A stretch of DNA of 64,000 nucleotides from the NCBI GenBank assembly GCA_036002485.1, contig DASYTI010000019.1:11990-75989 (forward strand), written 5' to 3'. The notes beneath the pieces are model-generated. The model searched no databases. It worked only from the letters and a program-made list of their open reading frames with translations, and was not told the origin of the DNA. Of this stretch, positions 3,522 to 31,647 are shown piece by piece (position 1 is the first letter of the stretch; each line of letters opens with the position of its first letter). The position numbers were made by a program, and so were the translations under genes. The DNA is from Candidatus Methylomirabilota bacterium. GTDB lineage: Bacteria > Methylomirabilota > Methylomirabilia > Rokubacteriales > CSP1-6.

Positions 3522-3525
3522 CCGA

Positions 3526-4881: not shown

Positions 4882-4957
4882 CGCTCCTTGCCACGCCTCG
4901 CGGCGCTCTTGACCTGCCCCCGTTCGAGCGCCGACTCTGCCGGCGCAATCCGCTCTT

Positions 4958-10821: not shown

Positions 10822-10829
10822 CGAGCGCC

Positions 10830-11789: not shown

Positions 11790-11826
11790 GCCGCCACGCC
11801 CGCGGGCGGCGCGGCCCCGGCTCCTC

Positions 11827-13491
11827 TTACTTGTCGATCCAGGCCGCCATGAGCCTTCCGCCGTAGTCGAAGCCGTTGTTCGGCATGTAGTTCTTGATGT
11901 AGGGCTCCCAGGCCGAGACGACCTTGACCGATCCGTTGACGCCGAACAAGGCTTGCTCGGCCAGGTACCGCTGGATGTCGTAGACGATCTGCTTGCGCTT
12001 GACCACGTCGAATGTCCGGCGCTGCAGGTTGATCATGTCGGTCAGCTTGGGGTCGTTCACGTTCATGACATTGAGCGGCTGGCCGGGCATGTAGGGGCGG
12101 TAGAAGTAGGCCTCGGGGTCGGTCCAGGCGCCCCGGAGCCCCAGGTACAGGTGATCGAACTTCCCGTAGATCGTGCTGGAGATGAAGGCCCCGTACTCCT
12201 TGAGCTTCAGCTCGGCGTCGATGCCGGCCGCCTTCCAGTTCTTGACGGTGATCTGCACGCCGTCCATGAAGTCGGGGCCGTAGCCCGTGCCGGGCGCCTC
12301 CACCTGCGTCTTGAACCCGCTCGGATGGCCGGCCTCGGCCAGGAGGCGCTTGGCCTCCGCAGTGGAGTGCTCGTAGAGCTTCCGCCCCTCTGGACCGAGC
12401 TGGTCGATGGGGATCGACCACTCCGCGGCGGCGGCCGGGACCGCGGGGTTGGGAGTCCAGTGGCCCTGGGAAAACGCGTTCGACTCGAAGATCTCGGCCA
12501 GGCTGACCGCGCGGGAGAGCGCGCGGCGGACGCGCACGTCGTTGAACGGTGGCTTGTCGATCTTCAAGCCGGTGGCTCCGCTGGTGAACCACGTGTACTC
12601 GGCGGTCTGCAGCCCGGGCTTCCGCTGCTTGGCCACCGCCAGATCGAGGCGGCGGACCACCTGCTGGTACTCGGGGCCGAAGTCGATCTTACCGGAGAGA
12701 AAGGTGGCCAGGCGGGACGACGGGTCCTTGTCGATGACCACCTCGACGCCGTCGGCGTACGGGAGCCCCGGGACGAAGTAGTTCGGGTTCCGCACGTAGA
12801 CGAGCCTCACGTTCGGCTCCCAGCGATCGAGCATCCACGGCCCGGTGCCTACGACCGACTCGGCCTTCTTGAGATCGCCGAACTTCTCGACGCACTCTTT
12901 CGCGACGATCCACGTCGACGTCGAGGCCAGCAGGTCCAGGAACCAGGCGTTCGGCTCCTTCAGCGTGAACTTGACGGTGTGCCTGTCGATGACGTCGATC
13001 CTGTCGACGTACTCCAGCACGGGCTTATTGCCGTTTCCCGTGATCGTGAGGAATCGCTCGTAGGTGTACTTGACGTCGTCGGCCGTCAGCTCGCGTCCGT
13101 TGACGGGGGGCTTGGGGTGCCAGCGGACGCCCTTCTTCAGCTTGAAGATGTAGGTCTTGTCGTCGGGCTGGGTCCACGACTCGGCCAGGTCGGGCTCGAT
13201 CGGGTAGGTCATCGGCTTCACGGACGGGCCCGCCTTCACCTTGACCAGGCGGCTATAGGCGAAGGAGAGGGGGATCTGCGTCAGGAACGAGATGCTCTGG
13301 TGCGGGTCGAGGCCGGTGACGGGGTCGCTCTGCAAGGCGAGGCGCAATGTCCCGCCCCGCTTCGGCGTCTGGGCCCTGGCCGCTTCCGGGGTGAGGAGGC
13401 CAGCGCCGATGGCGAGGCCGGCGGCGGCGGTGCCAGTGGCCTTGAGGACATCACGGCGGGTGATGGCGGTTGGAAACGGTGGACGGTCCAT
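11827..13491 (-). CDS. ABC transporter substrate-binding protein, family 5 (peptide/nickel type), Tat signal
   Basis: Start MDRPPFPTAITRRDVLKATGTAAAGLAIGAG (twin-arginine), followed by an SBP_bac_5-like sequence. Confidence 0.85.
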   Translation of the reverse strand: MDRPPFPTAITRRDVLKATGTAAAGLAIGAGLLTPEAARAQTPKRGGTLRLALQSDPVTGLDPHQSISFLTQIPLSFAYSRLVKVKAGPSVKPMTYPIEPDLAESWTQPDDKTYIFKLKKGVRWHPKPPVNGRELTADDVKYTYERFLTITGNGNKPVLEYVDRIDVIDRHTVKFTLKEPNAWFLDLLASTSTWIVAKECVEKFGDLKKAESVVGTGPWMLDRWEPNVRLVYVRNPNYFVPGLPYADGVEVVIDKDPSSRLATFLSGKIDFGPEYQQVVRRLDLAVAKQRKPGLQTAEYTWFTSGATGLKIDKPPFNDVRVRRALSRAVSLAEIFESNAFSQGHWTPNPAVPAAAAEWSIPIDQLGPEGRKLYEHSTAEAKRLLAEAGHPSGFKTQVEAPGTGYGPDFMDGVQITVKNWKAAGIDAELKLKEYGAFISSTIYGKFDHLYLGLRGAWTDPEAYFYRPYMPGQPLNVMNVNDPKLTDMINLQRRTFDVVKRKQIVYDIQRYLAEQALFGVNGSVKVVSAWEPYIKNYMPNNGFDYGGRLMAAWIDK

Positions 13492-13652
13492 GATCGCACC
13501 CTCCTCAGCGGCCACGATGGAGGCCGCGATCGCTGTCCGGACGCTTTCCTGGCCTCGGGGAGACGATGAACGCGCCCCGGGAGATTGGCGCGATACTGCT
13601 CCGTCGCCGGTTGCCCTGTCAAGGCCCTGTGGGCAAGTTGTGCTGCCGCTCC

Positions 13653-14795
<1,143 letters not shown>

Positions 14796-14927: not shown

Positions 14928-15356
14928 TCAGTTTGATCTGAGTAAGAAGCTGCCAGCTGCGATCAGCCCTATCGCGAATAGCTTCGTCCAGGTGAAGGGT
15001 TCCTTCAAGAACATAAACCCAACGAGCAGCACCAAGACCGTCGATGTACCCCCGATCACGAACGACGACGTCACTCGGAGTCCGCTCGCATAGGCCAACA
15101 GCGTGAACAGGTTTACGCAGGCGGTCGCCACCCCTACCAGGACCATGAAAGAGAACCCCTTCATGGAGAAGGCGACGGGCGTACCGGTGGCCCTGATCGA
15201 GAGCGTCACCATTGCGGTTATGAGGAAGGCAATGCCAGTGATTATCGCGGTACCGAGTGCGGGATGAATGCCTGGTGATGCCATCCGGGCCCCGATGATG
15301 TATGTGGCCATCGACACGCCGGCGAGAAGCGCATACGCGAAAGCGAGATTCAACAT
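14928..15356 (-). CDS. Small 4-TM membrane protein, EamA/DMT-superfamily-like
   Basis: 142 aa, four hydrophobic helices. Local GC is clearly lower than the flanks. Confidence 0.55.
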   Translation of the reverse strand: MLNLAFAYALLAGVSMATYIIGARMASPGIHPALGTAIITGIAFLITAMVTLSIRATGTPVAFSMKGFSFMVLVGVATACVNLFTLLAYASGLRVTSSFVIGGTSTVLVLLVGFMFLKEPFTWTKLFAIGLIAAGSFLLRSN

Positions 15357-15660
15357 GATGGCTCCTAGTCAACTAGCCGGGCGACCTCTTCCAGAGACCA
15401 CACGTGATCCGCCTTCCCGGCTTCCATGGCCGGGGTGACCCGCAGGGGAGCTTGGCAAGCTGTCAGGTCTCGGGGCCTCTCTGGAAGCTTCGCCACGGCC
15501 GGAGTATGCCACAGCTAGGCATGGAGCTTGCCGAGCCTCAGTTTCCAAACTGAGACACTACCCCCGAACCCGCACCGTATAGCTCGGTCATGGTCAGTGC
15601 TTGCGACATCCGAACGCATCTGCTTTACTCATGCGCAACGCGACCTCCGGGGAGGCCTCC

Positions 15661-16875
15661 ATGCGAGCACGACGGCTCTGGTTTTTGGCTACCGCAGCTC
15701 TTGCCCTTGCCCTCTGCGCGGGCGCGGCGACCGCCCAGTCGCCCATCAAGATCGGCGAGATCAACTCCTATAGCGGCATCGGCGCTCCGTTCACGGGGCC
15801 GTACCGCGCCGGCGTCGAGATGGCCGTGGAGGAGATCAATGCCAAGGGCGGCGTCCTCGGGCGCAAGCTCGAGGTCGTCTTCCGCGACGACAAGGGGCAG
15901 CCCGCGGAGGCGGTCAAGCATGCCCAGGAGCTCGTCGAGTCCGAGAAGGTGGCCCTGATCGCGGGCACCTTCCTCTCAAATGTGGGGCTTGCCGTCTCGG
16001 ACTGGGCCAAGCAGAACAAGACCATGTTCGTGGCCGCCGAGCCCCTGACGGAAGCGCTCACCTGGGCCAAGGGGCACGACTACGTCGTCCGCCTCCGCCC
16101 CAATACCTACGAGCAGGGGCGCATGCTCGCCGAGAAGGCGAGCAAGATGAAGTACGTGAAGTGGGCGACCATCGGCCCCAACTACGAGTACGGCAAGCGG
16201 GCCTGGGAGACCTTCCGTGACCGGCTCAAAGAGCTGAAGCCGGACGTGCAGGTGGTGGGCGAGCACTGGCCGACCCTCGGCAAGATCGAACCCGGTCCGC
16301 TCGTCACGGCGATCATGAGCCAGAATCCCGACGCCCTCTACGTCTCGCTCTTCGGCAGCGACTGGCTGGCCTTCGTGCGCGAGGCGCAGAAGCGGGGGCT
16401 CTTCCAGAAGACGTTCGTGGTGGGCATCCTGCTCGGCGAGCCAGAGTACATCGACCCCCTCAAGCTCGAGGCGCCCGAAGGCAATCTCGTGACCGGCTAC
16501 CCCTGGTACGACATCAAGAGCCCGGCGCACCAGGACTGGGTGACGCGCTACACCAAACGGGGCGACAAGCATCCGGTGCTGGGCTCGCTCATCGGCTACG
16601 TCACCTACGTCTCGATCGCGGAGGCGATCAAGAAGGCCGGCGGCACCGACACGGCCAAGCTCGTCCAGGCCTTCAAGGGCCTCAAGGTCGAGACTCCCAT
16701 CGGCCCCATCACCTTCCGGGCCTCGGACGGCCAGTCGACCATGGGCGCCTGGGTGGGCACCACCAAGCTCGATAGCCAGCGCGGCGTGGGGGTCATGGTC
16801 AATCACGAATACATTCCCGGCGAGAAGGTGCTGCCCTCCGACGACGAGGTGAGGAAGCTCCGCCCGGGCTCGTGA
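15661..16875 (+). CDS. Branched-chain amino acid / amide-type ABC transporter substrate-binding protein (LivK family)
   Basis: Signal peptide MRARRLWFLATAALALALCAGAATAQSP, then a Peripla_BP_6-like sequence (IKIGEINSYSGIGAPFTGPYRAGVEMAVEEINAKGGVLGRK). GGGGAGG RBS upstream of the ATG at 15661. Confidence 0.88.
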   Translation: MRARRLWFLATAALALALCAGAATAQSPIKIGEINSYSGIGAPFTGPYRAGVEMAVEEINAKGGVLGRKLEVVFRDDKGQPAEAVKHAQELVESEKVALIAGTFLSNVGLAVSDWAKQNKTMFVAAEPLTEALTWAKGHDYVVRLRPNTYEQGRMLAEKASKMKYVKWATIGPNYEYGKRAWETFRDRLKELKPDVQVVGEHWPTLGKIEPGPLVTAIMSQNPDALYVSLFGSDWLAFVREAQKRGLFQKTFVVGILLGEPEYIDPLKLEAPEGNLVTGYPWYDIKSPAHQDWVTRYTKRGDKHPVLGSLIGYVTYVSIAEAIKKAGGTDTAKLVQAFKGLKVETPIGPITFRASDGQSTMGAWVGTTKLDSQRGVGVMVNHEYIPGEKVLPSDDEVRKLRPGS

Positions 16876-16895
16876 GCTGAAGACCGCCCCCTCAT

Positions 16896-16945
16896 GATCT
16901 CAGCCCTCGCCTCATTCGAGGCGAGCCTCGGCTCGAAGTGCGGCC
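16896..16945 (-). repeat. Single copy of the same ~45-bp repeat family (inverted orientation)
   Basis: ctcagccctcgcctcattcgaggcgagcctcggctcgaa is the reverse complement of TTCGAGCCGAGG..GAGGCGAGGGCTGAG. Confidence 0.6.
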
Positions 16946-17001
16946 CTCTCCCCCGATTGTGGAGAGGATTTCTTGACTCCCTCTCCTCTCTGGGGAGAGG
17001 G
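16944..17001 (+). promoter_or_regulatory. Two stem-loops between livK and livHM; the first has a T-tract (partial terminator or attenuator candidate)
   Basis: The first stem-loop is ccctctc-ccccgattgt-ggagagg followed by atttctt. The second is ccctctcc-tctctgg-ggagaggg, directly before the RBS and GTG at 17023. Confidence 0.4.
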
Positions 17002-17022
17002 GCGGGGTGAGGGGAGCCGCCC

Positions 17023-18867
17023 GTGTCGCTTCTCCCGCTTCTCCTCGTCCAGTTGCTGAGCGGTCTCGCCAACGCGATGTTCCTCTTCCTCATCGCGTCT
17101 GGACTGTCGCTCATCTTCGGGGTCACCCGGATCGTCAACTTCGCCCACGGCTCGTTTTACATGCTGGCGGCCTATCTCACGTACTCGCTCACGGCGGCCC
17201 TGCCCTTAGGGCCCAACGCCTTTTACGCCGCCGCGCTGCTTGCCGCGCTTCTCGTCGCGGGGCTCGGCGGGCTCGTGGAGGCGCTGCTCCTTCGCCGCGT
17301 CTACCGCGCGCCCGAGCTCTACCAGCTCCTGCTGACCTTCGCGCTCGTCTTGATCGTGGCGGATGCCGTGCGCTATCTCTGGGGCGCCGACAACAAGACG
17401 GGGCCCGCCGCCCCAGGTCTGAGCGGCTCCGTGTCCATCGCCGGACAGCTCTTCCCGAGCTATGACCTCGCCGTCATCGTCTTCGGCCCCCTCGTCGCCC
17501 TCGGGCTCTGGGGCCTTTTCCATCGCACGCGCTGGGGTGTCCTGATCCGCGCCGCCACCCAGGACCGCGAGATGGTCGCGGCCCTCGGCGTGGATCAATC
17601 GCGCCTCTTCACGGGCGTCTTCATCCTCGGCTCCTTCCTGGCGGGACTCGCGGGGGCGCTCCAGGTGCCGCGGCTGGCCCTGACCACCGTGATGGACACC
17701 ACCGTCATCGTCGAGGCCTTCGTGGTGGTCGTCATCGGGGGCATGGGATCGGTGTGGGGGGCGCTGCTCGCCTCGCTCCTCATCGGCGTGCTCAACGCCT
17801 TCGGTGTTCTCGTGCTGCCCAAGATCTCCATCGTGCTCATCTTCGTCGTCATGGCCGTGGTGCTGATCGTGAGGCCCTGGGGTCTCCTGGGGCGGCCGGA
17901 GATCCAGCTGCGCGCGGCGGGGGGCGCCGTGGCCGAGGTGAGGCCGTCACGCGCCGGCCGATCATGGAACAAGGCATGGCTCGGGGCCGGAGTCCTGCTG
18001 CTCGCGGCGCTGCCGTGGGCGCTTCCGACCTTCTGGGCGTGGCTCGTCGTGGAGATCTTCGCCTTCGTGCTCTTCGCGGCGAGCCTCCACCTGCTCATGG
18101 GCCTGGGCGGCATGGTCTCGTTCGGGCATGCCGCGTATTTCGGGATCGGCGCCTACGCGGCCGCTCTCCTCCTCAAGCTCGCGAGCTGGCCCATGCCGCT
18201 GGCCTTTCTCGCGGCCCCCCTGGTGGCGGCGCTGGCCGCCGTCGTCTTCGGCTACTTCTGCGTCCGGCTCACGAGCATCTACTTCGCCATGCTCACCCTC
18301 GCGTTCGCCCAGATCGTCTACGCCGTCGTCCATCAGTGGGACGAGGTCACGGGGGGCGACAACGGCGTACTCTCCGTCTGGCCCCCCACATGGCTCGCCT
18401 CTCCCATGCGCTACTATTACTGGTCGCTGGCCGCGACCCTGGGGGGAGTGATCCTGCTCCGCGTGGTCGCCGGTTCGCCGTTCGGCCTCTCCCTGCGGGC
18501 GGTGCGCGACCATGCCCGGCGCGCCGAGGCCGTGGGCATCAATGTCCGGCTGCTGCAGTGGACGGCGTTCATCGTGGCGGGGTTCGTGGCCGGCCTCGGC
18601 GGCGCCGTCTTTGTCTTCCTCAAGGGAAGCGTCTTTCCCGTCTACACCGAGACGCCCATGTCGGTGCAGCCTCTCGTCATGGTCCTGCTGGGCGGGGTGG
18701 GCTCGCCCTCGGGTCCGCTGATCGGCGCTGCCGTGTACAAGCTCCTGGACACCGTGATCACCCGCTACACCGATTACTGGCAGTTCGTGCTGGGCGGCAT
18801 CCTCATCCTCCTGGTCCTGGCTTTTCCCCGCGGCATCGCCGGCGCGCTTCGCCCGAGGCGTCCATGA
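17023..18867 (+). CDS. Fused LivH-LivM type ABC transporter permease (two permease domains in one 614-aa protein)
   Basis: The N-terminal half resembles LivH (GLSLIFGVTRIVNFAHGSFYMLAAY). The C-terminal half resembles LivM (GLGGMVSFGHAAYFGIGAYAAALL). GTG start. Stop overlaps the livG start (ATGA). Confidence 0.8.
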   Translation: MSLLPLLLVQLLSGLANAMFLFLIASGLSLIFGVTRIVNFAHGSFYMLAAYLTYSLTAALPLGPNAFYAAALLAALLVAGLGGLVEALLLRRVYRAPELYQLLLTFALVLIVADAVRYLWGADNKTGPAAPGLSGSVSIAGQLFPSYDLAVIVFGPLVALGLWGLFHRTRWGVLIRAATQDREMVAALGVDQSRLFTGVFILGSFLAGLAGALQVPRLALTTVMDTTVIVEAFVVVVIGGMGSVWGALLASLLIGVLNAFGVLVLPKISIVLIFVVMAVVLIVRPWGLLGRPEIQLRAAGGAVAEVRPSRAGRSWNKAWLGAGVLLLAALPWALPTFWAWLVVEIFAFVLFAASLHLLMGLGGMVSFGHAAYFGIGAYAAALLLKLASWPMPLAFLAAPLVAALAAVVFGYFCVRLTSIYFAMLTLAFAQIVYAVVHQWDEVTGGDNGVLSVWPPTWLASPMRYYYWSLAATLGGVILLRVVAGSPFGLSLRAVRDHARRAEAVGINVRLLQWTAFIVAGFVAGLGGAVFVFLKGSVFPVYTETPMSVQPLVMVLLGGVGSPSGPLIGAAVYKLLDTVITRYTDYWQFVLGGILILLVLAFPRGIAGALRPRRP

Positions 18868-19631
18868 TGACGGACTCGCTGGCGACCGGGCCCGTCCTCG
18901 AGACGCGGGGGCTCTCGAAGGCCTTCGGCGGGGTCCAGGCGGTGGCCGCGGTGGACCTGGCGATGCCGCGCGGCGAGGTCCGGGCTCTCATCGGCCCGAA
19001 CGGCGCGGGCAAGACCACCTTTTTCAATATGCTGACGGGCCAGCTTCGGGCCGACGCGGGCGAGGTGCGCTTCAAGGGCGAGCTTCTCTCCGGCCTTCCC
19101 CCTCATGCGGTATGGCGCCGCGGCGTGAGCCGTACCTTCCAGATCACCGCGACCTTCTCGTCGCTGACCGCGCTCGAGAACATCCAGGTCGCCCTGTAGT
19201 CTCACCGTCACGAGACCTATGCGCTCCTGAGCCGGGCGGCCCGGCTCGAGGTGGGAGCGGCGCGGACGCTTCTGGCTCAGGTCGGGCTCGAGGGGCAGGC
19301 GGACAGGCCGGCGGGGGTGCTCGCCTACGGTGATCTCAAGAAGCTCGAGCTCGCCATGGCCCTGGCCAATGAGCCCGATGTGCTGCTGCTCGACGAGCCG
19401 ACAGCCGGCATGGCTCCGGCCGAGCGCGGCGCCCTGATGGCGCTCACCGAGCGAATCGCGCGCGCGCGCTCCCTCACCGTGCTCTTCACCGAGCACGACA
19501 TGGACGTGGTCTTCTCCGTGGCCGACCGTATCATGGTGCTGCACCAGGGTCGGGTCATCGCCGAAGGCAGCCCCGACGAGGTGAGGGCCGACCCGGAGGT
19601 CCAGCGCGTGTATCTGGGGGATAGCGAATGA
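18864..19631 (+). pseudogene. livG: LivG-type ABC ATPase interrupted by an in-frame TAG at 19197-19199
   Basis: The two track ORFs 18864..19199 (Walker A GPNGAGKTT, Q-loop) and 19251..19631 (signature LAYGDLKKLE, Walker B LLLDEPTAGM, H-loop) are in the same frame, with no other stop between them. The TAG sits where homologs usually have Gln or His after the ENI.VA motif. Confidence 0.75.
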
Positions 19632-19640
19632 GACGCGCCC

Positions 19641-20330
19641 GTGCTGACGCTTGACGGCGTCGAGGCGGCCTACGGACCTTCACGCGTGCTTCACGGCGTC
19701 TCTCTCGAGGCGCGCGAGGGCGAGGTGGTGTCGCTCCTCGGACGCAATGGCGCCGGCAAGTCCACCACGCTCAAGGCCACCATGGGCTTGGTGGATGTCA
19801 TCGGCGGCTCGGTGCGTCTCGACGGCCGAGAACTGAGGGGATTGCCGACCCACGAGATCGCCAGATTGGGTGTGGGCTGGGTGCCGGAAGACCGGCGCAT
19901 CTTCAGCGATCTCAGCGTGGAAGAGAATCTCCTGGTCGGGGCCCGGAGCGCGGGAGGGCAGAGCGTCGATCGCGTCTATGAGCAATTCCCCGCCCTCGGA
20001 CGGATGGCGGCGCGGCGAGGGGGAAGCCTCTCGGGCGGAGAGCAGCAGATGCTCACCGTCGCGCGCACCCTCATGGGCCATCCGCGCATCCTCCTCCTCG
20101 ACGAGCCGTCGGAGGGGCTGGCCCCCGTCATCGTCCAGGCCCTCGGCCAGCAGATCGCCGCGCTCAAGCGGGAGGGCTTGACCATCGTGCTCTCCGAGCA
20201 GAATCTCAAGTTCGCGGCCCGGCTGGCCGATCGGGCCTACATCATCGAGAAGGGCCAGATCCGGTGGGAAGGGCCCATGGCGCGGTTGATGGAAGACGAA
20301 GTCGTCCGCCGCGCGTACCTCACCGTTTAG
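19641..20330 (+). CDS. livF: LivF-type ABC transporter ATP-binding protein
   Basis: Walker A GRNGAGKST, signature LSGGEQQML, Walker B LLLDEPSEGL. GTG start. Confidence 0.88.
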   Translation: MLTLDGVEAAYGPSRVLHGVSLEAREGEVVSLLGRNGAGKSTTLKATMGLVDVIGGSVRLDGRELRGLPTHEIARLGVGWVPEDRRIFSDLSVEENLLVGARSAGGQSVDRVYEQFPALGRMAARRGGSLSGGEQQMLTVARTLMGHPRILLLDEPSEGLAPVIVQALGQQIAALKREGLTIVLSEQNLKFAARLADRAYIIEKGQIRWEGPMARLMEDEVVRRAYLTV

Positions 20331-20339
20331 GGAGCTCGC

Positions 20340-21515
20340 ATGAAGACGCTGATCAAGAATATCGGCGTGATCGTCTCCGGCGACATCGCGCGCCCGCTCC
20401 TCGAGGGCGACAGCATCGCCATCGCCGACGGCCGGATCGCCGCCGTGGGGAAGGGGCTCGAAGATCAGGCCGACACCGTCATCGACGCCAAGGGCAGCGC
20501 GGTGATCCCCGGGCTCATCGATTCGCACTGTCACCCCGTCTTCGGCGACTTCACCCCGCGTCAGCGAACCATGGACTTCATCGAGTCCGGGCTCAACGGC
20601 GGAATCACCACCATGATCTCGGCCGGCGAGGTGCATCTCCCGGGGCGACCCAAGGACATCGTGGGCCTCAAGGCCCTCGCCGTGGTGGCCGCCAAGGCCT
20701 ACGCCAATCTTCGGCCGGCCGGGGTCAAGGTCCACGGCGGGGCGCCCATTCTCGAGCTCGGCCTGGTCGAGGCGGACTTCGCCGAGATGGCCAAGCACGG
20801 CGTCAAGCTGGTCGGCGAGATCGGCCTCGGCTCGGTCAAGACCGGCAAGGACGCGGCGCCCATGGTCCGCTGGGCCAAGAAGCACGGCATGACCGTGACC
20901 ATTCACACGGGGGGGCCGTCCATCGCGGGCTCGAACCCCATCAGCGCCGAGGTCGTGCTCGAGGCGGATCCTCACGTCGTCGGTCATATCAATGGCGGCA
21001 CGACCTCCATGAGCGAGCGCGAGATCGACTCGCTGGTGGCGACAAACATGGCGCTTGAGATCGTCCACTGTGGCAATGGCAAGACGGCGCTGCACACGCT
21101 GGAGCGGGCCACCGAGGCCAAGGCGCTTCACCGCATCATCATCGGCAATGACGCCCCGTCGGGAACGGGCGTGGTGCCCCTGGGCATCGTCCGCGTGATC
21201 GCACATCTCGTCTCGCTGGGCGGGGTGAGCGCGGAGATCGCGATCTGCATGGCCACCGGGAATACGGCGCGCGTCTACAATCTGCCCGTCGGGGTCATCG
21301 CCACCGGCCGCGAGGCGGATCTCTGCATCGTGGACGCGCCCGTGGGATCGGTGGGCAAGACGGCCCTCGAGGCGCTCAAAGCCGGCGACCTCTTCGGCAT
21401 CTCGATGGCCCTCATCGACGGACAGATCAGGATAGGGCGCAGCCGTAATACGCCGCCGGCCGCCCGCGCCGCCGAGGTGATCAAAGGGCACGGCCCCTCG
21501 GGAGGAGGACACTAG
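20340..21515 (+). CDS. Enamidase-like amidohydrolase (metal-dependent amidohydrolase superfamily)
   Basis: The N-terminus MKTLIKNIGVIVSGDIARP...IAAVG and the C-terminal block CMATGNTARVYNL...GREADLCIVDAPVGSV closely recall enamidase (6-oxo-tetrahydronicotinate amidohydrolase) family proteins. Confidence 0.75.
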   Translation: MKTLIKNIGVIVSGDIARPLLEGDSIAIADGRIAAVGKGLEDQADTVIDAKGSAVIPGLIDSHCHPVFGDFTPRQRTMDFIESGLNGGITTMISAGEVHLPGRPKDIVGLKALAVVAAKAYANLRPAGVKVHGGAPILELGLVEADFAEMAKHGVKLVGEIGLGSVKTGKDAAPMVRWAKKHGMTVTIHTGGPSIAGSNPISAEVVLEADPHVVGHINGGTTSMSEREIDSLVATNMALEIVHCGNGKTALHTLERATEAKALHRIIIGNDAPSGTGVVPLGIVRVIAHLVSLGGVSAEIAICMATGNTARVYNLPVGVIATGREADLCIVDAPVGSVGKTALEALKAGDLFGISMALIDGQIRIGRSRNTPPAARAAEVIKGHGPSGGGH

Positions 21516-21516
21516 A

Positions 21517-21726
21517 CTTTCGAGCTGAGCCGCTGCCCCGCATTTCGAGTTGAGCGGTGGCCGATGGCCGCCGCGAGACGAGAGCTGAGTTGATTCGAGG
21601 TGAGTGGCGGCCAGCGGCCATCGCGAGACGAGGGCTGAGTGGAGCGCGCAGGCCGCAGTTCGAGCTGAAGGGCGAAGCCCTGAGGCGAGGGCTGAGTGGA
21701 TCAGCGGCGAGGCGAGTGCTGAGACA
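21517..21726 (+). repeat. Tandem array (about 3.5 units) of a ~45-50 bp intergenic repeat, consensus TTCGAG(C/T)TGAG...GCGAG(A/G)CGAGGGCTGAGTGG
   Basis: Units at roughly 21541-21591, 21592-21641, 21642-21698, and a partial unit at 21699-21722. Lies between the amidohydrolase stop and the PF06684 gene start. Confidence 0.75.
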
Positions 21727-21738
21727 AGGAGAAAGATT

Positions 21739-22308
21739 ATGCATATCCGGAAGCTGCTGACCGTGGTGGAGGAGATCTACGAGGACGGCGGGAAGAAGGC
21801 GGCCAGGCCCATCAAGAAGGTCGCGGCCATCGCGGTGATCGAGAACCCCTTCGCCGGACGCTTCGTGGAGGACCTGCAGGAGCTCGTCAAGACCGGCGAG
21901 GAGCTGGGCGATCTCCTCGGCCGCCGGGCCGTGGCCGCCCTCGGCGCGCCCGCCCATTCCTACGGCAAGGCCGCCATCGTCGGCGAGCAGGGCGAATACG
22001 AGCACGCCGCCGCCATCCTTCACCCTACCCTGGGCGCTCCCTTTCGCGCAGCGGTGGGCGGGGGCCAGGCCATCATCCCGTCGACGAAGAAACTTGGCGG
22101 GCCCGGCGCGACCATCGACGTGCCGCTGCACTACAAGGACGCGGCCTTCGTCCGGACTCATTTCGACGCGATGGAGGTGCGCCTGGGGGACGCTCCGCGC
22201 GCCAACGAGATTCTCGTCGCCCTCGTCGTCACGGATGGAGGCCGGCCTCACCCTCGCGTGGGAGGCCTGACCGTCGACGAGGCCAAGAAAGAGGACGGGT
22301 TGAGATGA
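21739..22308 (+). CDS. PF06684 (amino-acid-synthesis / DUF1185) family protein
   Basis: MHIRKLLTVVEEIYEDGGKKAARPIKKVAAIAVIENPFAG. GGAG RBS. The in-frame upstream part of the track ORF is a tandem repeat array, not protein. Confidence 0.65.
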   Translation: MHIRKLLTVVEEIYEDGGKKAARPIKKVAAIAVIENPFAGRFVEDLQELVKTGEELGDLLGRRAVAALGAPAHSYGKAAIVGEQGEYEHAAAILHPTLGAPFRAAVGGGQAIIPSTKKLGGPGATIDVPLHYKDAAFVRTHFDAMEVRLGDAPRANEILVALVVTDGGRPHPRVGGLTVDEAKKEDGLR

Positions 22309-23291
22309 AATTCGGACTCCGCATCCCGAGCTTCGCGCTCGGGCCCCAGACGACGACCCTGGCCGAGATGGGCGCCTATCTCCGGCGGGCCGAGGACCTG
22401 GGCTTCGATTCCGCGGTCAGCATCGATCACCTGCTGCAGACCCCGCCCGCCTATGCCTGCACCTGGCTCGAGCCCGTGGCGCTCCTCTCCGCGCTGGCGG
22501 GCGTGACGCGCACCATCAAGCTCGGCACCATGGTGCTGGTGCTGCCTTTGCGCAATCCCGCCTACTTCGCCAAGGAATGGGCGACCCTCGATCTCCTGTC
22601 GGGCGGCCGCAGCATCCTCGGGGTCGGGGTGGGCTGGCACGAGGAGGAGTTCGGGCTCATGGGCATCCCGCACAAGGAGCGGGGGCGCCGCATGGACGAG
22701 ATGCTGGAGCTCGTGACGGCGCTCTGGGCCGGCGACAACGTCACGTATGCCGGCAAGTACTACCAGGTCAAGAACCTGACCATCGATCCCAAGCCGGCCC
22801 AGAAGCCGCACCCGCCGATCTGGATCGGCGGCGGCAGTCAGCCCTTCGAGAAGGTGTACGGCCAGACCGTGACGAACATCGATCCCGTGCTCATGCGGAT
22901 CGCCAAATACGCCAAGACCTGGGTGCCTCACTCCTCCGCCACGGCCGACATGGTCAAGGACGACTGGGACAAAATCCAACGCTTCATGGTGGGGCTGGGC
23001 CGAAAGCCCGACGACATGACGAAGGTCTATTCGAATTTTGTGTACGTGCTGAAGAAGGGCGAGAAGCCCGAGGTGGCGGCGCCCCACTTCGAAGTCTACT
23101 CGGGCATGGACTTGCCCTACTGGCAGGAATACTACCTTCTGGGCGAGGCCGAGCCGGTGGCCGAGAGGATCCGCGCCAAGGTTGCCTCTCTGGGCGGCTG
23201 CGAGCACATCGTGCTCAACCCGCTCAACTGGGGGACAGAGCAGCTCGAGCTCCTGGCCGGCGAAGTCTTGCCGCGGGTCGCCAAGCCCTGA
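22305..23291 (+). CDS. LLM-class flavin-dependent oxidoreductase (luciferase-like monooxygenase family)
   Basis: 328 aa TIM-barrel LLM-like sequence (FDSAVSIDHL, GRSILGVGVGWHEEEF). Start overlaps the upstream stop (ATGA). Confidence 0.8.
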   Translation: MKFGLRIPSFALGPQTTTLAEMGAYLRRAEDLGFDSAVSIDHLLQTPPAYACTWLEPVALLSALAGVTRTIKLGTMVLVLPLRNPAYFAKEWATLDLLSGGRSILGVGVGWHEEEFGLMGIPHKERGRRMDEMLELVTALWAGDNVTYAGKYYQVKNLTIDPKPAQKPHPPIWIGGGSQPFEKVYGQTVTNIDPVLMRIAKYAKTWVPHSSATADMVKDDWDKIQRFMVGLGRKPDDMTKVYSNFVYVLKKGEKPEVAAPHFEVYSGMDLPYWQEYYLLGEAEPVAERIRAKVASLGGCEHIVLNPLNWGTEQLELLAGEVLPRVAKP

Positions 23292-23435
23292 CGGCTCAGG
23301 TCGGCGCGTGAGCTCGGCCACGGTGCCGCGCTGAGCACGGCCCCTCGCCTCACCGGCGCGCGCGTCAAGCGCGTCGAGGATCCGCGCTTCCTGACCGGGC
23401 GGGGCGCGTACCTCGACGACCTCCAGATCCCGGGA

Positions 23436-25640
23436 TTGCTTCACGCGGCCTTCGTGCGCAGCGCCCATGCGCATGCCGTGCTCCGCCACGCCGAGGTGGG
23501 TCTCGCCCGAGGGACGCCCGGGGTGGTTGCCGTTCTCACCGCGCATGATCTGGTGGAGTGGGTGAGCCCGCTCGCCCCGCGACTGGAAGGCGGAGGGTTC
23601 TGGCCTACCCGGTGCCCGGCTCTCGCGGTGGATCGGCTTCGCTTCGTCGGCGAGCCGATCGCGACGGTCTGCGCGGTAAGCCCGGGCCAGGCCGTGGACG
23701 CGGCCGAGCTCGTGGCAGTGGATTGCCAGCCCCTGCCCGCGGTTGTTGATGCAGGGTCGGCGCTCGCGGCGAACGCGCCCCTCGTCCATGAAAGCGTCCC
23801 TGGAAATATTCTGTTCCATCGCGACTATCGTCACGGCGACGTCGAGGGAGCTTTCGCGCGAGCGCACGTCGTGCTGGAAGAGCGATTCAGCCATGGACGC
23901 TGCTCGGCGGCGCCGCTCGAGCCCCGCGGCCTCATCGCCTCGTGGGCGGGCGAGCGGCTCACCGTCTGGACGGGCACCCAGGCGCCGCACATCTATCGCG
24001 CGGCCCTTGCTCGCGCGTTCGGCGTGCGTGAGGATCAGGTCCGGGTGATCGTGCCCGATACGGGTGGTGGCTTCGGCCAGAAGATGCACGTGCTCTCCGA
24101 GGATCTCGCCGTGGCTGCCCTCGCCTGGGTGACCGGGCGTCCCGTCAAGTGGATCGAGACACGCCGGGAGAACCTGGCCTGCGCCTCTCAGGCCCGTGAG
24201 GGGCGCGTGGACCTCGAGGCGGCCGCGGATGCGCGTGGCATGCTTCTGGCTCTGCGCGCCCGTGTCGTCTCTGACAACGGCGCATATCACGTCTATCCGC
24301 TGACCGCCGCTCTCGAGCCGCTCGGCATTGCCGGGATCATTCCCGGGCCCTACCGCACGCCGGCCTACGAGTGGGAAGCCATGGGCGTGGCGACCAACAA
24401 GCCGCCCCTGGGCGCCTACCGCGGCGTGGGGATGACCATGGGCGCCTTCGTGATGGAGCGCACCCTCGATCTTCTGGCGGAGCGGCTCCGCCTCGACCCG
24501 GCCGAGATCCGACGCCGCAACCTGGTCCCGCGCGACGCCTACCCCTTCAGGTCGGCGGCGGGCTTTCTCTATGACAGCGGTGACTACCCGAAGGCGCTCG
24601 AGATGGCTCTGGAGCTGGCCGACTACGAGGGCCTGAAGCGCGAGCGGGAACATGGACGCGCGCGCGGGCGTCTCCGCGGCGTGGGGATTTCCTGCTACAC
24701 GGAGTACACGAGCATGGGCTCGGCGACCTTTCGGAGCCGCGGCATGAGCGAGGTGCCCGGCCACGAGGCGGCGCGCGTCTCCATCGAGCGGGACGGCGCC
24801 GTGCATTGCCGCCTGACCATGCCGTCTCAGGGACAGGGACACGCCACCACGGTGGCCCAGATCGTGGCCGACGAGCTCGGCGTGCCGCTCGAGAGCGTGG
24901 TGGTCAGCCAGCCGGACACCGACACGACGCCGGCAGGCAGCGGCACCTTCGCGAGCCGAGGGGCGGTGGTCCAGCGGGGCGCGGCCGGCGCCGCGGCCGT
25001 CTCGCTCCGCCAGAAGGTGCTCGATCGGGCGGGAGCGCTCCTGGAAGCAAATCCCGCTGATCTCGAGCTTCGCCACGGTCGGGTGACCGTCCGAGGCGTG
25101 CCCGACCGCGGCGTGACGGTGGCCGAGGTCGCCGGCGCGGCCGGCGAGGGGACGCTCGCGGTGACGGAAGAGTTCGATCCGCCCGGACCGACGTTCTCGG
25201 GCGCCGTCCATGTCGCCTCCGTGGAGGTCGACGCCGAGACCGGGCGCGTCGTGCTCCACCGCTACATCGTCGTCGAGGATTGCGGCCCGGTCATCAATCC
25301 CGTCATCGTCGAGGGCCAGATTCACGGCGCGCTGGCCCAGGGAATCGGCGAGGCGCTGGGCGAGCGGCTCGTCTACGACGAGTCGGGGCAGCTCTTGACG
25401 GGCAGCTTGATGGACTACGCCTTGCCCACGGCGGCCGATCTTCCGCTCTTCACGCTGGGCCACCTGGAAACGCCCTCCCCCCTCACCCCCGGCGGCCACA
25501 AGGGCATGGGCGAGGGCGGCACCATCGGCGCTCCCGCCGCCATTGCCAACGCCGTGGCCGACGCCGTGCAACCGCTCGGCGTGCGTGTGATCTCACTGCC
25601 CATCCAGCCGGAGGTGCTGACCACGGGGGCGGACCGATGA
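23436..25640 (+). CDS. Xanthine dehydrogenase / CO dehydrogenase family molybdopterin-binding large subunit (CoxL/aldehyde oxidase-like). The true start is probably upstream, around 23331.
   Basis: Ald_Xan_dh_C and C2-like sequence throughout. The conserved family N-terminus ARVKRVEDPRFLTGRGAYLDDLQIPG is encoded in frame upstream of the first ATG/GTG/TTG (see findings). Confidence 0.8.
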   Translation: MLHAAFVRSAHAHAVLRHAEVGLARGTPGVVAVLTAHDLVEWVSPLAPRLEGGGFWPTRCPALAVDRLRFVGEPIATVCAVSPGQAVDAAELVAVDCQPLPAVVDAGSALAANAPLVHESVPGNILFHRDYRHGDVEGAFARAHVVLEERFSHGRCSAAPLEPRGLIASWAGERLTVWTGTQAPHIYRAALARAFGVREDQVRVIVPDTGGGFGQKMHVLSEDLAVAALAWVTGRPVKWIETRRENLACASQAREGRVDLEAAADARGMLLALRARVVSDNGAYHVYPLTAALEPLGIAGIIPGPYRTPAYEWEAMGVATNKPPLGAYRGVGMTMGAFVMERTLDLLAERLRLDPAEIRRRNLVPRDAYPFRSAAGFLYDSGDYPKALEMALELADYEGLKREREHGRARGRLRGVGISCYTEYTSMGSATFRSRGMSEVPGHEAARVSIERDGAVHCRLTMPSQGQGHATTVAQIVADELGVPLESVVVSQPDTDTTPAGSGTFASRGAVVQRGAAGAAAVSLRQKVLDRAGALLEANPADLELRHGRVTVRGVPDRGVTVAEVAGAAGEGTLAVTEEFDPPGPTFSGAVHVASVEVDAETGRVVLHRYIVVEDCGPVINPVIVEGQIHGALAQGIGEALGERLVYDESGQLLTGSLMDYALPTAADLPLFTLGHLETPSPLTPGGHKGMGEGGTIGAPAAIANAVADAVQPLGVRVISLPIQPEVLTTGADR

Positions 25641-26110
25641 GCGTCGAGATCGAGAGGAAGTTCCTCGTGACCTCCCTGCCGGAGGCGATGGATCGGTATC
25701 CCCATGAGCGCATCGTGCAGGGCTATGTCGTGCTGGGCGCGGACGGGGGCGAGGTGAGACTGAGAAGAAAAGGGCTGAAGCATTTCGAAGCGGTCAAGAT
25801 GGGTCGGGGGGAAATCCGGTCCGAGCTCGAGGTCGAGCTCACCGCGGCCCAGTTCGATACCTTGTGGGAGGCCACCGCCGGACGAAGAATCGAGAAGACG
25901 AGGTACGAGATCCGCCATGCCGGAGCGATCATGGAGCTCGACGTCTACCACGGGGAGCTGGCCGGCCTCGTCACGGCGGAGTGCGAGTTCGCGTCACCCG
26001 AGGAAAGTCGGCGCTTCGTTCCGCCGGACTGGCTCGGGAGGGAAGTCACGAACGACCCCGCCTACAAGAACCAGAGCCTCGCGGTTCGTGGACGGCCGCT
26101 CGAGACGTAG
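25637..26110 (+). CDS. CYTH-domain protein (CyaB/thiamine-triphosphatase-like)
   Basis: MSVEIERKFLV is a hallmark CYTH N-terminus. 157 aa. ATG overlaps the coxL-like stop (ATGA). Confidence 0.8.
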   Translation: MSVEIERKFLVTSLPEAMDRYPHERIVQGYVVLGADGGEVRLRRKGLKHFEAVKMGRGEIRSELEVELTAAQFDTLWEATAGRRIEKTRYEIRHAGAIMELDVYHGELAGLVTAECEFASPEESRRFVPPDWLGREVTNDPAYKNQSLAVRGRPLET

Positions 26111-26111
26111 A

Positions 26112-26149
26112 GAGCCCGGAGGCGGAACCGGTGTACCGCCTCCGGGCTC
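26112..26149. terminator. Perfect 14-bp inverted repeat between convergent genes (bidirectional terminator candidate)
   Basis: gagcccggaggcgg-aaccggtgtac-ccgcctccgggctc begins 2 nt after the CYTH gene stop. Confidence 0.5.
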
Positions 26150-26444
26150 GGCATGTTGCGCACAGGCCCACGCCTGCGGCATGACCCGGCGCGAGCCGGG
26201 CTCTCTCGTGATGTGCTACGCGACGCTGCGCACCATCAGGAGCTCACCGCGCCCGATGGCGCCCTGTTGAGCCAGGCGGAGTCTTCTCCATGACACCTCC
26301 CCGATTGTGAGCGTCAAGACCGGAGGTGGCGCCTCCACTCCCGTCACGTTCAGTCAACTCCGGCCGGACGTGTGCTGTCAAGCCCTCGTGACGTGGCGCG
26401 CGAGCTGCGCGGGCTTCGCATCACGAAAGCTTGACGCCCTGGCC

Positions 26445-26882
26445 TCACTTCGGCGGCACGGACACCGACAGCGTCTGATCCGGATTGCGTTTCAGCTTCA
26501 AGGTCACCGCCCTCGCATGCAGGGGGAACAAGGTCAAGGACGCCGTGTCTTCCTGGTCGAGGGTGAGAAGAATGGGACGGCGCTCTATCTCCACCACCCG
26601 GGAGGCGGGCTTGCTGAATTCCTGGAAGATGACGAAGATGTGAGCAGTTCGCCCGTCCGCCCCCGCGAAGTACCAGATCGCGCTGCCGCTCGCCGGCGGC
26701 TCGGACCATCGCGTTTCGTTTGCGATCACGCCGCCGGGGGGGACCCGCTCGAGATTCACTTTCAGTGAGAACGACCAGTGGAATCCCGCTCGCCCCGTCT
26801 CGATCACCGTCCACTCCGGCTCGGCAAAGGCCGGCGATACCAGCGCCATCCCAAGAAGCCATGCCCCAAGGAGCCGCATCAT
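26445..26882 (-). CDS. Secreted hypothetical protein
   Basis: Signal peptide MMRLLGAWLLGMALVSPAFA. 145 aa. An AT-rich promoter island lies upstream (26883-27060). Confidence 0.6.
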   Translation of the reverse strand: MMRLLGAWLLGMALVSPAFAEPEWTVIETGRAGFHWSFSLKVNLERVPPGGVIANETRWSEPPASGSAIWYFAGADGRTAHIFVIFQEFSKPASRVVEIERRPILLTLDQEDTASLTLFPLHARAVTLKLKRNPDQTLSVSVPPK

Positions 26883-27119
26883 GATCCTGATCCCCCTATG
26901 ATGAGATTGCTCTGATTGAACAAGAGGGGCCCAGTCTATCGCAATGGAGTCTGGTACGGGTCGCAGGAGTAGTGCGGAAAAAATCCCGCTCCGACCAATC
27001 CCCGGTATCCTCCCCCGATTTTTGTCGCCCCTCGCGGCAGGGGCTCATCACGCCCGCCTGAACTGACGGGCCTTTGCGCGAGAGGAGCCAATGGAACGCC
27101 CCTTGCTCCACGGGTGAGC

Positions 27120-28388
27120 ATGCGCATCGTGCATGTGACTCCCGGCTACTGGCCCCGGCGGGGAGGCGAGCAGGTCTACGCTCGGAGGCTATCCGAAGGG
27201 CTGGCCTCGCGCGGGCACCACGTGACCGTCCTCACGGCGCGAGGCCTTGAAGCGACGGACGGGGTCCCGCCTCCGCCGTCGGGGCTCCCCCACCCGCCGC
27301 AAGTTCTGCATTTCACCGAGAACGGCGCCTTCCACCGCTTCTTGAAGGTTCCCGGGGCTCAGCGCCTCCTGGGCGCCCTTCTCCCCCAGGACCGAATCAG
27401 GATGATGGACGGCGGCCCGCTCAGCGCGCGGCTCTTCGTGGAGCTCCTGCGGAGCAAGGCGGACATCGTGAGTGTCCTCGGATGGCGGGCAAGCCTTCTG
27501 CCCTTCAAGGTCGCGATGGCGAAGAGGCTCAGGAGATGGCGGATGGTGGGGATTCCGATGTTCCACACGGAGGAAGCCTGGAGCCGGGAGGATGTCTACC
27601 CGCCCCTGCTCAGCCGGTGTGACGCCATCGTCGCGAACACCGGCTACGAGAAACAGTTCGTCGAGGGCCGCATCTCTTCGCCGACCCGGGTGCTCGTCGG
27701 GGGCGCCGGGATCGATCCGCACGCCTTCTCCAAGCGGGACGGGCGAAAGATCCGAAGCCGCCATGGCCTGCGTGGGGGCCCCGTGGTCGGCTACGTGGGC
27801 CGCGTCGTTCCCTCCAAGGGCGTCACCGCGCTCATCAAGGCCATGCGCGTCGTCTGGCAGTGGAATCCCGAGGTGCGGCTCGTCCTGGCGGGGCCAAGGA
27901 TGTCGGGGGGGAGGGCGGCGGATCGGGAGGTGGAGCTGGCCCTCGCCCGGCTGCCGGAGGCGGAAAGGTCTCGAGTCCTCTTGCTGGGCGAGTTCGACGA
28001 GGAAGACAAGGCCAGCATCTTCGACAGTCTCGACGTGTTCGCCATGCCATCGATCGGAGAATCGTTCGGCATCGCATACCTCGAGGCGTGGATGTGTGGC
28101 AAACCGGTCATCGGCGCCAACGTCGGATCGACCCCCTCCGTCATCCGAAATGGCGTGGACGGCCTCCTCGTGAACCCGCAGGACCCACGGCACATCGGAG
28201 AGGCCATCGTGAGGCTGCTGAAGGATCCTCCGGAGTGCGCTAGACTCGGCCAGGCTGGCTACACACGGACGACGTCCGAGTTCACGTGGGACAGAATCAT
28301 CGACCGGATCGAGGGCCTCTACAAGGAGCTGGCATCTCCCGAGCCTATCCCGGCACCCGCGGCGGCAGCCCGGCGGGCTTCCAGCTGA
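27120..28388 (+). CDS. Glycosyltransferase family 4
   Basis: MRIVHVTPGYWPRRGGEQ N-terminus. C-terminal GT4 motif region (GESFGIAYLEAWMCGKPVIG). Confidence 0.85.
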   Translation: MRIVHVTPGYWPRRGGEQVYARRLSEGLASRGHHVTVLTARGLEATDGVPPPPSGLPHPPQVLHFTENGAFHRFLKVPGAQRLLGALLPQDRIRMMDGGPLSARLFVELLRSKADIVSVLGWRASLLPFKVAMAKRLRRWRMVGIPMFHTEEAWSREDVYPPLLSRCDAIVANTGYEKQFVEGRISSPTRVLVGGAGIDPHAFSKRDGRKIRSRHGLRGGPVVGYVGRVVPSKGVTALIKAMRVVWQWNPEVRLVLAGPRMSGGRAADREVELALARLPEAERSRVLLLGEFDEEDKASIFDSLDVFAMPSIGESFGIAYLEAWMCGKPVIGANVGSTPSVIRNGVDGLLVNPQDPRHIGEAIVRLLKDPPECARLGQAGYTRTTSEFTWDRIIDRIEGLYKELASPEPIPAPAAAARRASS

Positions 28389-28485
28389 GGGAGGGGCAGC
28401 CGGGCGGAGGCGCCGAGGACGTGATGTCCCGTCCGCGCGCTATCAGATCCTCGTCGTTCGGAGTCTCATCATCCAAGAGGGTAAA

Positions 28486-30123: not shown

Positions 30124-30452
30124 GCCGGCACGCCATCCGGGCGGCCCTCGCCACGAAGACCGGGCATTCGAAACCGTAGGATGTTGTAGGGGAACCCGAC
30201 AGTAGCACGAGAGAGTTACCCGACGGAATTCACGAGCAATGGCAGTCGTTTGCCCAGATACCAGGGAAAATCATCCAACGATGTTCCAGCGAGAACGTCG
30301 GAAGAGTTTACGCGCAACCAATAGATCATTTGCCAATTGAACTGAAGTTGCTGTTTTGACGGCTTATTCCTTCGTACGACCATCTTGGCATAGTGTCTGC
30401 TCATACTCGTGGCCGGTGTCGAACTTGACCGTAAAAGGAGCTACGTGACCCT

Positions 30453-31061: not shown

Positions 31062-31290
31062 GGGGCTCTCTGAAGTAGTTTCGGTAGTCCTGCCACACTG
31101 ATACTTCGTCGGGCATTACGCCAACGTAGTCCCCACCTCCCTCGGGCAGCCTTCCAGCGCCCTGTCAAACCGGTCACGCGCAAGTCATTGACATTGCGTA
31201 TGGAGACGAGCTGGCACGGCTTCTGCGTTACGGGGGCCCAGTTGACGGGCTGCCCAAGCTACCTGGTGCGATGAAGAGGAGGAAGCGGCC

Positions 31291-31500: not shown

Positions 31501-31647
31501 CGAATCCTGGCGTCGACCTCAGATAGACGCTTTTCTCTCTCAGTAGCTCGAGAGGCATCGCCCCGCCCACTACGATGGCCGCTTGATCGCTGAAGGTGCG
31601 AGCCGTCGATCCGCCGGCGCACACGTCGACCGACTATAATCGACGGG

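Follow-up and report, generated by a model that had tools for sequence, protein, structure and literature searches.

The stretch of DNA analysed here (the window) comprises 64,000 nt of contig DASYTI010000019.1 from a Candidatus Methylomirabilota bacterium of the Rokubacteriales. Between positions 15661 and 26110 on its plus strand lie nine co-directional, closely packed open reading frames (ORFs) that probably constitute a chromosomal Rokubacteria operon for the uptake and breakdown of nicotinate, or of a very close pyridine carboxylate such as 6-hydroxynicotinate, via 1,4,5,6-tetrahydro-6-oxonicotinate (THON). This reading is supported by six genes that are 52–62% identical to members of published nicotinate clusters and by an enamidase that is 57% identical to the Eubacterium barkeri enzyme. 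A preliminary description of this DNA had proposed uptake and breakdown of an N-heterocyclic or amide compound, an idea that was right in kind and that these identities sharpen to the nicotinate/THON route. The pathway itself is known; new here are an F420-class luciferase-like oxidoreductase (LLM) in place of 6-hydroxynicotinate reductase (Hnr), a lone CoxL-type molybdenum (Mo) hydroxylase subunit and a conserved CTG start codon for the latter.

The ORF list together with Pfam and NCBIfam profiles backs the identity of each gene, with only a marginal Pfam score for the CYTH protein:

15661–16875, plus strand: binding protein (SBP) of an ABC importer; Pfam PF13458, E 9e-75
17023–18867, plus strand: fused LivH-LivM-type permease, a single ORF of 614 aa; PF02653 twice (two BPD_transp_2 domains)
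18864–19631, plus strand: LivG-type ATPase gene with an in-frame amber codon, TAG 19197–19199 (codon 112 of 255)
19641–20330, plus strand: LivF-type ATPase; Pfam ABC_tran
20340–21515, plus strand: amidohydrolase, enamidase ortholog; PDB 2VUN, E 4e-136 over residues 2–380
21739–22308, plus strand: PF06684 protein (DUF1185, 'amino acid synthesis' family); Pfam E 7e-73
22305–23291, plus strand: LLM oxidoreductase of the F420 class (TIGR03619)
23331–25640, plus strand: CoxL/Qor-type Mo-hydroxylase large subunit, predicted at 769 aa from a CTG; PF01315, PF02738 and PF20256; open frame 23292–25640
25637–26110, plus strand: CYTH-type triphosphatase-like protein (NeuTTM-like)

The preliminary description had counted ten genes, a number reduced to nine by the fusion of LivH and LivM; the ATGA overlaps that it placed at 18864, 22305 and 25637 are all present when checked base by base.

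A protein search of annotated plasmids identified enamidase homologs in Sulfitobacter pontiacus and a Comamonadaceae strain (loci L091 and L092). The surrounding clusters encode an annotated '6-hydroxynicotinate reductase', a UPF0280 protein, a ferredoxin-NADP reductase (FNR), a Mo hydroxylase and two PF06684 proteins. The Mo hydroxylase comprises a flavin adenine dinucleotide (FAD) subunit and a fusion of Fe-S and molybdenum cofactor (MoCo) domains in Sulfitobacter, and separate genes for a 2Fe-2S and a molybdopterin subunit, at the locus edge, in the Comamonadaceae strain. In the latter, the SBP, a fused permease and two ATPases are all seen; the Sulfitobacter locus stops within the permease gene and so includes only its start and the SBP. 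Identities of the window proteins to those of these two loci are 52–53% for the SBP, 53–57% for the permease, 55% for LivG, 52% for LivF (to L092), 54% for the enamidase and 60–62% for the PF06684 protein, which is present in one copy and matches one of the two paralogs. By these identities the four-gene transporter is orthologous to one published under the label 'putative nicotinate ABC transporter' within the nicotinate-degradation cluster of Azorhizobium caulinodans, Bradyrhizobium japonicum and Rhodopseudomonas palustris (AZC_2790-2804; blr3818-3830; PMC3511419), for which the same chemistry is predicted.

The enamidase aligns with the E. barkeri structure 2VUN over its full length, and residues H63, H65, E160, H189, H216 and D271, at the canonical metal-ligand positions of amidohydrolases, are invariant between the two, as predicted for an ortholog of EC 3.5.2.18. 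It is 88–93% identical across Rokubacteria, with a second clade at 71–77%. The THON route has been established for E. barkeri and Azorhizobium (PMC9304392), and the window would share the logic of the E. barkeri system (Ndh, Hnr and Ena), namely hydroxylation, reduction and hydrolytic ring opening (PMC9304392). Unlike E. barkeri, the window lacks Hnr but encodes an ABC importer and a PF06684 protein.

The Rokubacterial version also departs from the proteobacterial one in its redox genes. Tblastn with the Sulfitobacter Hnr, UPF0280 and FNR proteins matched only L089 (described below), L091 and L092; neither the window nor a single Rokubacteria locus gave a hit. Also missing are the hydroxylase's FAD and Fe-S subunits, one PF06684 gene stands in place of two, and genes for glutarate and coenzyme A (CoA) metabolism are not adjacent; the Rokubacteria add the F420-class LLM and the lone CoxL.

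To follow this arrangement across species we scanned species-representative genomes and retained the best 80 of 320 loci. Nearly all 80 come from metagenome-assembled genomes (MAGs) of Rokubacteria or Methylomirabilota, and homologs of the amidohydrolase and LLM with a named source are likewise attributed to Rokubacteria, Rokuibacteriota or Methylomirabilota. Among the 50 loci that extend far enough downstream, 44 have PF06684, LLM and CoxL genes after the enamidase gene, an arrangement far beyond chance; the neighbourhood comparison that the preliminary description had suggested thus shows the gene combination to recur in relatives. Genes 3′ of CoxL are not conserved in these relatives and include a short-chain dehydrogenase/reductase (SDR), a MoxR/DUF58/transglutaminase set, formate-tetrahydrofolate ligase, an iron-containing alcohol dehydrogenase and others. 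Recurrence of trpS is confined to the separately fetched L010, a close relative whose enamidase is 92% identical.

Two further observations concern the composition of this set. In 26 loci of the 71–77% clade, a DUF1015 (PF06245) gene lies between the enamidase and PF06684 genes (e.g. L055, 11200–12396) and could be a further pathway component. Six loci (L022, L027, L045, L048, L050 and L056) come from MAGs labelled Acidoferrum, Deferrimicrobiaceae, Verrucomicrobiia, Nitrosotalea, Binatia and Elusimicrobia, with enamidases 77–85% identical to that of the window (83–85% in five). Synteny is fully Rokubacterial in L022, L027, L045 and L048, and mis-binning of Rokubacteria contigs probably accounts for these loci.

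Two hybrid or outlying clusters bear on the roles of the LLM and CoxL. L089, from a non-Rokubacterial MAG, combines an enamidase and PF06684 with UPF0280, an Hnr homolog (44%) and a hydroxylase made up of a FAD subunit and an Fe-S/MoCo fusion. L090, from the divergent Methylomirabilota MAG SMAG_U9985 (1614–14490), has a hydroxylase of the same make-up, whose Fe-S/MoCo fusion shares 43% identity with that of Sulfitobacter, alongside a transporter, an enamidase, PF06684, a CoA transferase and an LLM (61%), with no Hnr. This hybrid cluster links the proteobacterial and Rokubacterial versions, and together the loci form a series: Hnr with a conventional hydroxylase in L089 and Proteobacteria, LLM with a conventional hydroxylase in L090, and LLM with a lone CoxL in the window. 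The LLM thus goes with the lack of Hnr, and CoxL with the lack of the conventional hydroxylase, a pattern that is our main basis for assigning them putative reductase and hydroxylase roles.

In the pathway that we propose from orthology and context, the HAAT-type ABC importer (SBP, fused permease and two ATPases) would take up the substrate, and the CoxL/Qor-type Mo subunit would hydroxylate the N-adjacent ring carbon to give 6-hydroxynicotinate. The F420-class LLM would then give a hydride to the ring, yielding THON and replacing the Fe-S flavoprotein Hnr together with its helpers UPF0280 and FNR. Ring opening by the enamidase, with release of ammonia, would produce 2-formylglutarate, which the PF06684 protein may tautomerise or decarboxylate to glutarate semialdehyde, feeding a glutarate metabolism that would be encoded elsewhere.

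For the last of these assignments, we know of no PF06684 member with a defined reaction. The window protein is about 60% identical to SPO0826 (PDB 2QTP, E 8.5e-72), and other members of the family occur in heterocycle-degradation operons alongside steps that form aldehydes: in trigonelline degradation, TgnF stimulates the oxidation of succinate semialdehyde, and HcdD belongs to a coumarin operon (PMC7913881). Purely as a hypothesis, the PF06684 protein may catalyse or assist the tautomerisation or decarboxylation of 2-formylglutarate, the beta-formyl acid that the enamidase would release. The Azorhizobium route, in the account of Kitts et al. from 1992, reportedly includes a decarboxylation prior to glutarate.

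For the reductase step, the LLM passes the NCBIfam model TIGR03619 (197.6 bits against a cut-off of 166.9) with far lower scores on the RutA and SsuD models, and NCBI names its relatives TIGR03619-class F420 LLM proteins. Picrate reductase, Mer and Fgd, which are F420H2-dependent luciferase-like hydride transferases, belong to the same fold family, although none is close to the window LLM. LLM-fold F420H2 enzymes reduce the electron-poor aromatic ring of picrate by hydride transfer, and F420 biosynthesis genes have been reported in Rokubacteria genomes (PMC8498797). By analogy, reduction of 6-hydroxynicotinate with F420 is plausible chemistry for this protein.

The candidate hydroxylase has quinoline 2-oxidoreductase QorL as its best PDB match (E 1.6e-168), and 6-hydroxypseudooxynicotine dehydrogenase (Kdh) is among its other strong matches (E 1e-115). 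Both enzymes hydroxylate an N-adjacent ring carbon, which supports CoxL as a ring hydroxylase. The GGGFG, QGQGH and C-terminal GEGG motifs are present in its sequence. It does not match aerobic CO dehydrogenase: the TIGR02416 score is 558 bits against a cut-off of 991, and the active-site loop, AYxCSFR in the CoxL of CO dehydrogenase, reads AYRGVGM. The protein is distant from the nicotinate dehydrogenase (Ndh) subunits of E. barkeri (3HRD, E 1e-28 to 3e-40) and 30–31% identical to the proteobacterial hydroxylase.

A complete Mo hydroxylase combines MoCo, 2Fe-2S and FAD components, and Qor works with a medium (FAD) and a small (2Fe-2S) subunit; the window encodes the MoCo large subunit only. 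A CoxS/CoxM motif search of the window and all loci returned real matches only in L089 and L090, and a scan of long ORFs over the remainder of the window found no Fe-S or FAD Pfam domain. The preliminary description had called this large subunit an orphan, and so it is, both here and in relatives. Genes for its partners may lie elsewhere, or its redox partner may be the LLM. The CoxL and LLM genes lie side by side in almost every locus whose flank is long enough. A more speculative arrangement, which we consider improbable, is that the lone CoxL and the adjacent LLM form a self-contained redox-neutral module, in which the two electrons that nicotinate gives up at the Mo centre would pass to the deazaflavin or flavin of the LLM and return as hydride to the hydroxylated ring, with the weak CTG start setting the subunit ratio. 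The net reaction would be nicotinate plus H2O to THON, and the Fe-S and FAD subunits of all known xanthine-oxidase-family enzymes would be unnecessary.

As a separate observation, a partnerless Mo subunit beside PF06684 and enamidase-like genes is also found in a second phylum. The megaplasmid NC_011961 of Thermomicrobium roseum (L093, locus 3940–11182) carries Rieske dioxygenase alpha and beta genes, an SDR gene, a lone large subunit of the xanthine dehydrogenase (XDH) family that is 41% identical to the window CoxL, a PF06684 gene and an enamidase-like gene.

The gene for CoxL has no ATG, GTG or TTG between the LLM stop codon (TGA 23289–23291) and the conserved N-terminus; the first such codon is TTG 23436, within the conserved region. 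Contigs L004 and L005, from the same population, share this start. To survey the position we compared 60 loci (the window and 59 from other genomes): 29 offer CTG only, 27 a canonical start, three ATH only and one none. The homologous position reads NTG, where N is A, G, T or, very often, C; AGC (Ser) is a common second codon, and the NTG frequently overlaps the LLM stop codon as NTGA or comes within a few bases of it. In L022, L024, L036 and L038 the frame opens just one to four codons 5′ of the CTG, and in L042 an ATG occupies the same site after an identical purine-rich sequence. In 20 of 20 CTG-only species examined, coxL is complete at 762–786 codons, with pairwise dN/dS of 0.14–0.36. As a control, the enamidase, PF06684, LLM and LivF genes have canonical first codons in >90% of the same loci. 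The conserved NTG position, the complete ORFs under purifying selection and the canonical starts of the control genes together indicate that coxL begins at CTG 23331, which gives a predicted product of 769 aa. Public gene calls start at TTG 23436 (734 aa), with the loss of 35 conserved residues.

Several other starts were considered and set aside. TTG 23436 was rejected because conserved coding sequence lies upstream of it, as was a GTG inside KRVED, which also has conserved coding sequence upstream and whose codon is GTC in the window. CoxL does not keep a constant frame relative to the LLM stop (28, 26 and 9 loci in the three frames), which led us to reject read-through or a programmed frameshift joining LLM to CoxL. 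The loci concerned include L012, L020, L022, L024, L025, L032, L052, L055 and L060; roughly one in two Rokubacteria species has CTG alone at this site, a few have ATA or ATC, and the CTGA overlap is frequent.

The second irregularity in the operon is the amber codon within livG. Three metagenome contigs (L001–L003) that are 99.8–99.9% identical to the window carry CAG (Gln) at this site and an intact 255-codon gene, so that one C-to-T substitution sets the window apart at this codon. Nine differences fall within the genes of the cluster, eight of them synonymous, and an exact look-up of the truncated LivG product returned no record in any other assembly. Given the CAG in near-identical contigs and the absence of the truncated product from other assemblies, the amber codon is a private, recent variant or a consensus error and does not signal decay over the long term; a genuine amber would knock out the importer of this strain alone. 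Between 15990 and 21912, the window has A/T where these relatives have G/C at eight of the nine in-gene differences, the amber included, an excess that could reflect GC-to-AT mutation bias or C-to-T sequence damage.

Several findings weigh against the nicotinate route. With no Fe-S or FAD partner in the 64-kb window or within 10 kb in ~60 relatives, the electron path from CoxL is unexplained. The best NCBIfam match of CoxL is the archaeal glyceraldehyde dehydrogenase alpha subunit (620 bits, under the cut-off of 790), which makes an aldehyde oxidoreductase role possible. PDB matches of the LLM reach E 6e-17 or weaker and mix flavin mononucleotide (FMN) and F420 enzymes, with no characterised close relative, and F420 biosynthesis genes were not seen in the window. 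LivG is interrupted in the window sequence, and 25 of the 53 loci with enough upstream flank lack the orthologous transporter next to the enzyme block. Finally, distant enamidase homologs (43–47% identity) lie beside Rieske dioxygenases in other phyla, in Thermomicrobium and Rhodococcus, which indicates that the family is not tied to nicotinate alone. It is conceivable, though rather unlikely in our judgement, that the same core of importer, enamidase and PF06684 protein serves another cyclic amide or N-heterocycle, or that the redox enzymes have other roles: the LLM could act on aldehydes or alcohols as an oxidoreductase, or be a flavin monooxygenase, and CoxL could oxidise 2-formylglutarate or glutarate semialdehyde and not the ring. 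The LLM matches do include FMN monooxygenases, and JGI names many of its homologs 'alkanesulfonate monooxygenase'; the Thermomicrobium cluster has the lone large subunit, PF06684 and the enamidase-like gene with no LLM. Such a substrate or such roles are harder to reconcile with the orthology of all six core proteins to clusters that contain Hnr, with a CoxL score of 565 bits on the Qor/Kdh side against at most 169 for the Desulfovibrio and PaoC aldehyde oxidoreductases, and with the F420-class profile of the LLM. L090, moreover, pairs the LLM with a proteobacterial-type hydroxylase and has no Hnr, which leaves the reductase step to the LLM.

The importer could also be an ordinary branched-chain amino-acid (Liv) system beside unrelated enzymes. 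Its ABC subfamily and domain families are those of LivJ-LivHMGF, its Pfam names (BPD_transp_2, BCA_ABC_TP_C and Peripla_BP_6) point the same way, and earlier work interpreted the surroundings of PF06684 genes as branched-chain amino-acid metabolism and the neighbours of SPO0826 as a transporter for such amino acids (PMC2954203). The SBP, a periplasmic protein of the HAAT/Peripla_BP_6 family with a Tat-like RR signal, makes this hardly credible. It scores 99.9 bits on the LivJ model NF011933, whose cut-off is 477, and equally on the UrtA model (~100 bits each, cut-offs 477–493). Its closest solved structure is PDB 3I45 (413 bits, E 1.1e-122), with every other structure at 94 bits or less, including LivJ/LivK at 67 bits or less, UrtA at 55 and AmiC at 30. 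The placement that the preliminary description had called for thus puts the SBP, on model and structure scores, in neither the Liv nor the Urt type, in keeping with its view that branched-chain amino acids are not the cargo. A pyridine carboxylate may be bound in 3I45, a point not used as evidence here; a literature search found no mention of 3I45 and nothing on nicotinate-binding proteins of Rhodospirillum. The permease, in contrast to LivHMGF, is fused, as it is in relatives (607–614 aa) and in the Comamonadaceae cluster (1893 bp). The genomic partners of the transporter are catabolic enzymes: it lies directly upstream of the enzyme block in 28 of the 53 informative loci, its genes meet at an ATGA overlap (permease/livG) or a 9-nt junction, and its orthologs are embedded in nicotinate clusters. 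Very unlikely, too, is a decaying, non-functional remnant with a pseudogenised transporter and a 5′-truncated hydroxylase, a decay that the preliminary description had raised as a possible meaning of the amber codon and the missing start. Both irregularities are present, and as the truncated LivG has no counterpart in other assemblies, the lesion could be genuine and private, abolishing import in this strain. The CAG codon of near-identical contigs and the mostly synonymous differences speak against decay, as does the intact coxL under purifying selection, which lacks a canonical start in 33 of 60 loci yet has ATG, GTG or TTG at the homologous position in other species. With the enzyme block also kept in most informative loci, decay is largely refuted at the lineage level.

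The setting of the operon is that of a core chromosome. The GC content is even across the window, with the operon matching its flanks, and the remaining genes encode sugar and peptide ABC systems, trpS, glycogen enzymes, ruvCAB, queA, tgt, secDF, relA, recG and a Pup-proteasome cluster. A horizontally acquired island was rejected on these grounds. With the block recovered from dozens of Rokubacteria species genomes as well, the 'island' of the preliminary description is better described as part of the core chromosome. The Pup-proteasome set (38549–44963, minus strand) comprises a proteasome subunit and an AAA ATPase of the Mpa/ARC type along with two genes of the Pup-ligase family (PafA/Dop type). 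The region 3′ of the operon (26973–32712) encodes a glycosyltransferase of family GT4 and a TPR protein; in the matching contig L004 a DUF4114/PEP-CTERM protein follows these genes, which suggests an exopolysaccharide or exosortase-related locus.

The last gene of the operon encodes a CYTH protein. Its Pfam score is weak (E 0.013), but PDB matches to 2FBL and 3TYP (E ~1e-34) and an EIERK sequence (ExExK) at residues 4–8 place it in the family. The gene overlaps the CoxL stop codon by ATGA and precedes a probable terminator hairpin, adjoins CoxL in none of the 80 other-species loci, and occupies this position in this population only. It is a co-transcribed, lineage-specific passenger; the preliminary description had identified the protein correctly but had counted it within the catabolic set, to which it does not belong across species.

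The non-coding features of the operon are:

16941–17004, no strand assigned: hairpin CCCTCTCCCC ... GGGGAGAGGG in the spacer between SBP and permease; inverted repeat I3, arms of 16 nt, 88% complementary
21516–21738, no strand assigned: variable 223-nt spacer with CGAGRGCTGAG repeats; AAGGAGA ahead of the PF06684 ATG
26112–26149, plus strand: GC-rich hairpin, probable operon terminator; inverted repeat I1, arms of 17 nt, 94% complementary, loop of 4 nt

GGGGAGG lies 6 nt upstream of the SBP ATG. A sigma-70 promoter scan found none, a terminator scan returned intragenic sites only, and an Rfam scan of 15000–26600 gave a single chance-level match and nothing else. The hairpin motif in the SBP–permease spacer is also found between LLM and CoxL in L021, L022, L024, L036, L038 and L042; its operon spacer changes from species to species, and it resembles a small, dispersed REP-like (repetitive extragenic palindromic) repeat. 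The CGAGRGCTGAG repeat, which has no Rfam match in the enamidase–PF06684 spacer, occurs in at least four copies within 21579–21723 and as single copies at 16899 and 32787, both on the minus strand. In other species this spacer ranges from 3 nt, in many, to ~220 nt.

Few catabolic traits have been assigned to the Rokubacteria, soil bacteria that are abundant but uncultured. If correct, the pathway would give them a testable nutrient route, with pyridine carboxylates such as nicotinate (vitamin B3) as a source of carbon and nitrogen. The LLM would then have a physiological F420 role outside Actinobacteria and archaea, among the first to be proposed there, and the PF06684/DUF1185 family, long unassigned, gains a specific chemical hypothesis. 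The operon also defines a conserved Mo hydroxylase large subunit without its usual electron-transfer partners. For annotation, genes labelled 'Liv branched-chain amino acid transporter' in this context would belong to a heterocycle pathway, and gene callers that ignore CTG trim conserved residues from the hydroxylase or make it resemble a pseudogene.

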